DNA of 44,728 nt, from assembly GCF_003334315.1 (NCBI RefSeq), contig NZ_QOWR01000039.1; one strand, given 5' to 3'. The position numbers and the translations under genes are program-made. The notes under the pieces were generated by a model, which worked only from the letters and a program-made list of their open reading frames with translations, ran no database searches and was not told the origin of the DNA. The stretch is from Escherichia coli (GTDB lineage Bacteria > Pseudomonadota > Gammaproteobacteria > Enterobacterales > Enterobacteriaceae). Positions 41,284-41,330 of the stretch are shown here, one piece after another (the stretch's first letter is position 1; each line of letters begins with the position of its first letter).

Positions 41284-41330
41284 ACAAACGATCGTTTATA
41301 ACGATCGATATGATAGTAACGATCGATGTA
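41284..41330 (-). promoter_or_regulatory. cluster of three GATC (Dam) sites in repeated AACGATCG motifs upstream of the dynamin-like operon
   Basis: aaacgatcgttt (12-bp palindrome), taacgatcgata, taacgatcgatg; GATC at ~41290, 41303, 41321; 60-100 bp upstream of the start codon at 41228. Confidence 0.5.

Follow-up and report, generated by a model that had tools for sequence, protein, structure and literature searches.

In agn43 (flu) of Escherichia coli K-12, expression is set by a competition between Dam and OxyR (PMC4872104; PMC13337833; PMC3764049), and in the gtr loci of Salmonella the two compete at GATC pairs 13 bp apart within an OxyR dimer site (PMC2909390). The pap family works with Dam and Lrp; its two GATC boxes lie 102 bp apart and PapI takes part along with Lrp (PMC2909390). 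The Dam/OxyR phase-variation loci in this body of work control surface structures, namely the Ag43 adhesin and, through gtr and opvAB, the modification of the O-antigen. Here we describe a cluster of three GATC sites in a 44,728-nucleotide stretch of the E. coli chromosome (assembly GCF_003334315.1, contig NZ_QOWR01000039.1; hereafter the window, meaning the whole stretch), which comprises the gnd/his region and an island at the CP4-44 position. We consider it likely that this cluster serves as operator in an epigenetic phase-variation switch of the agn43 type, which drives an operon for a CrfC/RdcA-like dynamin, an RdcB-like protein and a patatin-like phospholipase. The type of switch is textbook; its coupling to a dynamin/patatin operon is what appears to be new. 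In the literature that we searched, which leaves out most subscription papers, no prior link of the operon to Dam or OxyR was found, and an earlier mention is possible.

Homology to the agn43 and cah control regions

The three GATCs start at 41290, 41303 and 41321, and the region 40664-44235 is otherwise free of GATC. Each is embedded in the octamer AACGATCG (41287, 41300, 41318), which is found three times in 44.7 kb, and the longer motif TAACGATCGAT is present twice, at 41299 and 41317. At 41286-41297, AAACGATCGTTT forms a perfect 12-bp palindrome, and the ATAG at 41313-41316 on the plus strand reads CTAT on the gene strand. A sequence-only reading of the window had pointed to clustered sites in repeated motifs, one of them a perfect palindrome, and to an ATAG-like element; all of these are present as described. 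The elements of the control region are listed below, with the dyads D0, D1 and D2 denoting OxyR dimer-type sites and copy numbers referring to a sample of 48 copies introduced later.

41229-41445: spacer of 217 bp, with the YeeP-like GTPase gene and the dynamin-family gene on either side, both on the minus strand
41353-41358, minus: -35-like hexamer TTGCGT, 17 nt upstream of the -10; invariant in 25 of 25 haplotypes, with CTTGCGT also in the cah-type region
41330-41335, minus: -10 hexamer TAGAAT, identical to the -10 before isrC/flu in K-12
41324, minus: predicted transcription start, the G of GATC-I, placed from the annotated K-12 isrC 5' end
41229-41324, minus: predicted 5' untranslated region (UTR) of 96 nt, with an RNA fold
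41321-41324: GATC-I, Dam site inside the right half-site of D0; invariant (48/48 copies)
41303-41306: GATC-II, Dam site inside the left half-site of D2, 18 bp from GATC-I; invariant (48/48 copies)
41290-41293: GATC-III, Dam site inside the right half-site of D2, central to the palindrome AAACGATCGTTT, 13 bp from GATC-II; kept in 46/48 copies
41291-41327, minus: OxyR tetramer-type site of 37 bp, ATCG-N7-CTAT-N7-ATCG-N7-CGAT, spanning about -3 to +34
41322-41336, minus: dyad D0, ATAGAATACATCGAT, 8/10 to ATAGnTnnnAnCTAT; overlaps the -10 and GATC-I
41313-41327, minus: dyad D1, ATCGATCGTTACTAT, 8/10
41291-41305, minus: dyad D2, ATCGTTATAAACGAT, 8/10; GATC-II and GATC-III occupy its two half-sites

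Could such a cluster have arisen by chance? At least one cluster of three GATCs within 35 bp occurs in 49% of dinucleotide shuffles, and GATC is not enriched across the window (152 sites vs 174 expected), so that bare clustering was rejected as evidence. The one other such cluster in the window (16187, 16192 and 16204; window 16187-16207) falls inside coding DNA in the his operon region, as could happen by chance. A chance cluster at the operator, or a mere hairpin or terminator built from CGATCG palindromes, would agree with this shuffle frequency and with a scan that flags CGATCGTTATAAACGATCG followed by TTTG as terminator-like. However, three CGATCG within 40 bp appear in 0.3% of shuffles, and the region is conserved and significantly similar to the agn43 and cah control regions. 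This homology effectively refutes the chance explanation, to which we attach next to no probability, and it is also the reason why the feature stands well beyond chance.

We aligned the region to K-12 yeeP-isrC-flu. The two sequences are nearly identical to the end of the GTPase gene, then diverge, and then align again in an operator block, which reads CTCAAGTTAATAGAATACATCGATCGTTA-CTATCATATCGATCGTTATAAACGATCGTTTGTAG in the window and CTCAA--TAATAGAATAAAACGATCAATATCTATTTTATCGATCGTTTATATCGATCGAT--AAG in K-12; within it the -10, the start, the three GATCs and the half-sites are brought into register. The window, K-12 and the spacer before cah in O157-type islands share the -10, the inferred start, the three GATCs, the spacing of GATC-II and GATC-III, and the OxyR half-sites; the aligned part runs from about the -35 to +55. 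We also compared the 91-bp operator by blastn with 5,426 complete E. coli genomes (28 Gb) and obtained two classes of match. The first is full-length and occurs in 1,981 genomes; the second has 77-82% identity over operator positions 13-81 (E = 1e-4 to 5e-3), and two matches of this class that were checked by annotation both have a GTPase gene on one side and an Ag43/Cah gene on the other. The alignments, the blastn matches and these annotated contexts together establish that the resemblance to the agn43 Dam/OxyR switch, which had been recognized from the letters of the window, is homology and not analogy.

On the gene strand the promoter elements follow one another as TTGCGT, 17 nt, TAGAAT, ACATC and GATC-I. 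The K-12 isrC 5' end is the G of GATC-I, 6 nt past TAGAAT, and the geometry in the window is the same. We predict a promoter of sigma-70 type with its start near 41324. The -10 region TAATAGAAT is conserved in every switch copy examined, and a promoter scan of the spacer gave no other promoter-like site able to serve the operon. A pyrimidine run in the -35/-10 spacer (41336-41358) is unusually polymorphic in the 25 haplotypes (gtgtttctcaag, gtgcttcccaag, gtgttcctcaag, gtgtttttcaag, gtgttttttaaa); all variants keep the spacer length at 17 nt, and the polymorphism may tune promoter strength. Downstream of the start, the 5' UTR is predicted to fold with -25.6 kcal/mol (z = -3.16). The first predicted hairpin is the GATC-II/III palindrome. 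In the second (about 41233-41277, minus strand), CCUCCUCC pairs with the AGGAAGG Shine-Dalgarno of the dynamin gene, and if the modelled structure forms it may add a translational layer atop the transcriptional switch. E. albertii has nearly the same UTR.

The OxyR consensus ATAGnTnnnAnCTAT-N7-ATAGnTnnnAnCTAT is reportedly that of Toledano et al. 1994. Our scan used the consensus in this form; a slightly different string is printed in PMC2909390. The sequence at 41291-41327 matches it at 16 of 20 positions and is the unique best site on both strands of the 44.7-kb window (the runner-up scores 14), and the K-12 agn43 operator, which is experimentally established, reaches 14/20 by the same consensus. 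The recognition sequence as a whole adjoins the -10, extends from about -12 to +34 relative to the inferred start and contains all three Dam sites. D0 and D2 are common to all switch copies examined (Ag43, Cah, Citrobacter and dynamin type). Their centres lie 31 bp apart in the dynamin type and 32 bp apart in the others. The dynamin type alone has D1, at 22 bp from D2. Because no further dyad up- or downstream in the spacer scores above 6/10, the operator has the agn43-like layout of a single site in a repressor position, and a repressor-only logic is expected from this arrangement.

The correspondence with agn43 of K-12 is close. Both control regions occupy the same island position, directly downstream of a YeeP-family GTPase gene. 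The -10 sequence TAATAGAAT is identical, the start coincides with GATC-I, GATC-II and GATC-III lie 13 bp apart in one ATCG-N7-CGAT dyad, and a single OxyR site covers the start region, with no upstream activator site. The differences are also clear. GATC-I and GATC-II are 19 bp apart in K-12 and 18 bp apart here, and the middle segment here (GTTACTATCAT) makes the extra canonical dyad D1, which accounts for the score of 16 vs 14. Upstream of -15 and downstream of about +55 there is no relatedness. The isrC leader of about 200 nt and its terminator are missing: the Rfam model RF00124 (IS102, that is, isrC) gave 20 bits (E = 0.63) for the operator part only and did not reach the gathering score of 46, whereas K-12, as positive control, gave 252.6 bits. 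Finally, the cargo is an intracellular five-gene operon and not a surface autotransporter.

By sequence, the closest relative is the cah control region of O157-type islands, exemplified by EH2252, with which the window shares the region from about -90 to about +55. This includes TGAAAACA...CTTGCGT...GTTAATAGAAT upstream and CGATCGTTT(A/G)TAGT..TAATG(G/A)CCT downstream of GATC-III. The gene that the switch drives first in EH2252 is cah, with the dynamin operon co-transcribed at best; the window has neither the autotransporter nor the leader, and the switch is joined straight to the operon through the 96-nt UTR. This junction is not a clean recent deletion, since over the 50 nt that precede the ATG the similarity to EH2252 is only loose.

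Other Dam-dependent designs fit less well. D2 has the GATC-pair design of Salmonella gtr and opvAB (GATC-N9-GATC in one dyad), but in those systems three or four alternatively occupied dimer sites precede the promoter, and OxyR acts as activator in the ON state. A layout of this type was rejected: D0, D1 and D2 all lie over the start region, and the other dyads of the spacer stay at or below 6/10. The pap-family switch likewise achieves epigenetic ON/OFF states through protection of GATC from Dam; a Dam/Lrp design was rejected since 40664-44235 holds just the three clustered GATCs and no pair 102 bp apart.

Conservation and island context

The exact 371-bp junction of the GTPase 3' end, the spacer and the dynamin 5' end is present at a coverage of at least 80% in 1,979 of the 5,426 complete E. 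coli genomes. The operon is thus carried by about 36% of these genomes, including Nissle 1917, 536, avian pathogenic E. coli and clinical isolates of diverse sequence types. The first 77-90 nt of the junction query match GTPase genes in 3,886 genomes. E. albertii has the same junction with five substitutions in the operator, none of which touches the GATCs or their spacing.

For conservation within the operator we collected 48 copies, from genome loci and from metagenomes scanned with 33 nt of the 5' UTR as anchor; the anchor lies outside the operator, and conservation of the UTR itself cannot be judged from this sample. The copies represent 17 operator haplotypes with OxyR scores of 15-17, and the spacing is 18/13 wherever all three GATCs are present. 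Within the 37-bp OxyR site, 6 of the 17 N positions are polymorphic vs 2 of the 20 consensus positions, a trend (Fisher p = 0.11); the depletion of polymorphism at GATC positions is a trend only (Fisher p = 0.26).

Two natural variants have lost GATC-III. In E. coli DEF10 from mouse faeces (L126, 4001-4091) the site has changed from GATC to AATC; this copy has three differences from Nissle 1917 over 228 aligned bp, all of them within the operator. In the human-gut metagenome contig QZLM01002248.1 (L130) GATC has become TATC; with this change the half-site reads CTAT, as in the consensus, instead of CGAT, and the OxyR score rises to 17/20. The two alleles may be locked or biased switches.

The second variant bears on whether the operon could be an ordinary member of the OxyR regulon, with a graded response to oxidative stress and with GATCs that are incidental to the ATCG/CGAT half-sites. 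The strong match to the consensus would suit such regulation, and agn43 is bound by both redox forms of OxyR (PMC2909390). The site, however, lies over the -10 and the start, which is a repressor position, and the GATCs are placed exactly as in the half-sites of agn43 and gtr (GATC-N9-GATC), for which Dam sensitivity is proven. Moreover, a good half-site does not need a GATC, since one variant has the consensus CTAT in place of GATC-III, yet the GATCs are kept in 46 of the 48 copies. We regard membership of the ordinary OxyR regulon as very unlikely.

Relatives of the switch were also sought by a scan of contigs with the pattern CGATC-N10-13-ATCGATCG-N7-CGATCG. The pattern was too loose and was flooded by cyanobacterial and high-GC genomes rich in CGATCG; among the matches listed, we used the enterobacterial ones, which come from E. 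albertii, C. braakii and C. amalonaticus and from a mis-binned cah contig of E. coli. An E. coli cah-type switch is carried by a 1.5-kb contig (L083) that was assigned to a metagenome-assembled genome (MAG) of Collinsella sp. and is probably a binning contaminant. Three matches, L070, L077 and L004, were set aside for their different contexts. Two of them (L070, 9060-9120, from an Enterobacteriaceae MAG; L077, 12020-12080, from C. braakii) show three or four intergenic CGATCG-type GATCs after a TAAAAT -10-like hexamer, in the MAG upstream of an H-NS-like gene and in C. braakii before a 96-amino acid open reading frame (ORF) beside a TraG-like gene. These clusters may be further Dam-dependent switches unrelated to the CP4-44-type island family.

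Where does the switch reside in other genomes? In the island family the order is GTPase, switch, cargo, DUF932, antirestriction, RadC and CbtA/CbeA, and it is the cargo that varies. In EH2252 the order is GTPase, switch, cah, dynamin, RdcB-like, patatin, DUF932 and antirestriction. In the 110-bp spacer between cah and the dynamin gene of EH2252, GATC and promoter- or terminator-like signals are absent, and the operon there (L003, 2679-6011) may hence be co-transcribed with cah; the dynamin gene in this copy is frameshifted. In C. braakii and C. amalonaticus (L078, 4551-6200; L037, 800-1130) the GTPase gene and the switch are found with a GATC spacing of 19/13, as in agn43, and the cargo consists of two small signal-peptide proteins (154 and 157 amino acids), followed by DUF932, antirestriction and RadC genes. 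From the EH2252 and Citrobacter contexts we conclude that the switch sits at a fixed island slot and that the cargo varies. The earlier suggestion that the cargo operon may have inherited the agn43-type switch is supported, with a refinement: the control region is homologous, but it was not taken from the K-12 chromosomal position as such, being a fixed part of the island family.

The GTPase gene before the switch has often suffered damage. It is split by an IS21-family element in MIN6 (L002, 8558-12075) and cut to 435 bp in 536 and Nissle 1917 (L124 and L125, 6473-6907). All three strains nevertheless retain an intact switch and operon. In the window the gene is an intact 303-amino acid ORF with matches to GTPase families (41446-42357, minus strand; see the list in the next section).

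The operon and its expression in strain MP1

The genes on either side of the control region and the end of the putative transcription unit are as follows.

41446-42357, minus: YeeP-like GTPase gene, with about 96% identity to K-12 yeeP at the 3' end
38832-41228, minus: gene 1, dynamin-family GTPase of 798 amino acids, a CrfC/RdcA (YjdA) paralogue; RefSeq "dynamin family protein"
37930-38835, minus: gene 2, RdcB (YjcZ)-family protein of 301 amino acids by RefSeq annotation; 4-nt overlap of its start with the dynamin stop
36863-37933, minus: gene 3, patatin-like phospholipase of 356 amino acids; its start overlaps the gene 2 stop by 4 nt
35618-36835, minus: genes 4 and 5, both hypothetical (ORFs 36044-36835 and 35618-36028), the last of the five-gene unit; their MP1 counterparts are co-regulated (PMC12922286)
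35447-35476, minus: strong terminator-like hairpin after gene 5, with a 13-bp stem and a T run

Genes 1-3 are translationally coupled through their 4-nt overlaps, and the hairpin at 35447-35476 is, judged by its sequence, the likely end of the transcription unit. The product of gene 1 matches the NCBIfam CrfC model NF007368 over its full length with 556 bits; as this is below the cut-off of 1146, gene 1 encodes a paralogue and not an equivalog of CrfC/RdcA. In the core genome, the rdcAB operon is part of the flagellar regulon and is not known to be phase-variable. Genes 1 and 2 are full-length paralogues of the K-12 pair RdcA (CrfC/YjdA) and RdcB (YjcZ), which activates the diguanylate cyclase DgcE (PMC6510439); identity of the island genes to RdcA/RdcB is only about 30% (PMC12922286). 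Unlike the K-12 pair, the genes here are island-borne and joined to a patatin-like phospholipase and two hypothetical genes. The PADLOC models, including those for the LeoA/LeoBC dynamin and the CBASS phospholipase effector, gave no full-length significant match for the operon proteins. Their matches are local, to the G domain or the patatin motif only (E = 1e-5 to 1e-2), and assignment of the cargo to a known defence system was rejected on this ground.

A published data set offers a glimpse of how the operon is expressed. RNA-seq of E. coli MP1 and a prophage-cured derivative compared two isogenic lineages, and the five-gene cluster SID94_19700-19720 showed the strongest differential expression between the MP1 lineages in both media (PMC12922286). 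According to these authors, the regulation of the dynamins is undescribed. We find that the cluster (NZ_CP139039.1, 4061483-4067600; L171, 9484-15600) comprises the genes for dynamin, RdcB-like protein, patatin and two hypothetical proteins, and that its upstream spacer carries the same switch, with three GATCs at 18/13 spacing. Because the adjacent GTPase and DUF932 genes are outside the reported cluster, the boundary of differential expression coincides with the switch promoter. When two strain lineages are each sampled as two colonies, a clonal ON/OFF phase state can masquerade as regulation (PMC3764049), and the MP1 pattern is suggestive, if indirect, support for heritable ON/OFF states. 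The published reading, crosstalk with a prophage, may instead reflect a difference in phase state.

Alternatively, the MP1 difference could be due to a prophage-encoded or stress-linked regulator acting on this promoter, with GATC and OxyR uninvolved. The authors themselves propose such a regulator, and a second, paralogous dynamin operon was reported to be up-regulated too (PMC12922286). Against it, no such regulator is known, the signal of the paralogue is affected by multi-mapping reads (PMC12922286), and the effect is independent of the medium and limited to the unit behind the switch. We consider such a regulator to be a most improbable explanation. Bulk transcriptomics of clones can mistake phase state for regulation, and the "lysogeny-induced dynamin" of MP1 is a candidate case.

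Proposed switching and its implications

By analogy with agn43, the switch would work as follows. The sigma-70 promoter (41358-41353 and 41335-41330, start near 41324, minus strand) would drive five genes to the terminator near 35450. When the GATCs are unmethylated, OxyR would bind, occlude the -10 and the start, and block RNA polymerase; bound OxyR would in turn shield the GATCs from Dam, making the OFF state heritable. If Dam acts first in the hemimethylated window after replication, OxyR would be excluded and the operon transcribed, and this ON state would be heritable as well. Rare switching would then produce mixed ON and OFF lineages, with bistable expression and the matching methylation patterns of agn43. 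We would expect dam mutants to be locked OFF and oxyR mutants to be locked ON. The I-II spacing, shorter by 1 bp, and D1 may shift the bias between ON and OFF. As to published lists of unmethylated GATCs for strains with this locus, the searched literature held nothing usable.

Several observations weigh against an agn43-type switch at this locus. GATC-I and GATC-II are 18 bp apart instead of 19, and the extra D1 sets the middle of the operator apart from that of agn43; because of these two features, the affinity for OxyR or the switching kinetics could differ, or the switch could be biased to one state. The -35 is weak, with 3 of 6 matches to the consensus, and a simple promoter scan called an overlapping, weaker candidate and not the TTGCGT/TAGAAT promoter. 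The excess of polymorphic sites at non-consensus positions falls short of statistical significance. Finally, two colonies were sampled per strain in the MP1 study, whose authors explain the result by lysogeny (PMC12922286).

Some of these features would also be seen if the control region were a relic, a descendant of an Ag43/Cah promoter that still serves the operon but in which the Dam/OxyR balance has been lost and expression is either effectively constitutive or permanently repressed. The 18-bp spacing and D1, which lifts the score to 16/20, could favour OxyR and hold the operon mostly OFF, and two natural variants lack GATC-III. Yet the GATCs and half-sites persist in 46 of 48 copies and across the split between E. 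coli and E. albertii while neighbouring positions vary, and the two MP1 lineages differ strongly in the expression of exactly this operon. We therefore judge a relic to be unlikely and favour a working switch, in which case about a third of E. coli strains probably express the module in only part of the population.

The agn43-type switch inferred here would extend the Dam/OxyR mechanism from surface structures to a cytoplasmic or membrane-associated GTPase/phospholipase operon. It also offers a regulatory handle, in the form of states locked ON or OFF through dam, oxyR or GATC mutants, for finding the function of the module. It is tempting to hypothesize, with considerable doubt, that the slot after the YeeP-family GTPase gene in CP4-44/CP4-57-type islands is a general phase-variable slot, whose switch has been re-used for unrelated cargo: for Ag43/Cah, for the Citrobacter proteins and for the dynamin/RdcB-like/patatin set. 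If, in addition, the dynamin/patatin module is a costly device for membrane remodelling, abortive infection or cyclic di-GMP (c-di-GMP) signalling, about a third of E. coli strains would bet-hedge intracellular defence or signalling epigenetically. Unexplained differences in expression between clones, such as those of MP1, would then be accounted for. The comparison of cargoes suggests that the island family may carry a portable epigenetic promoter cassette for whatever cargo is swapped in.

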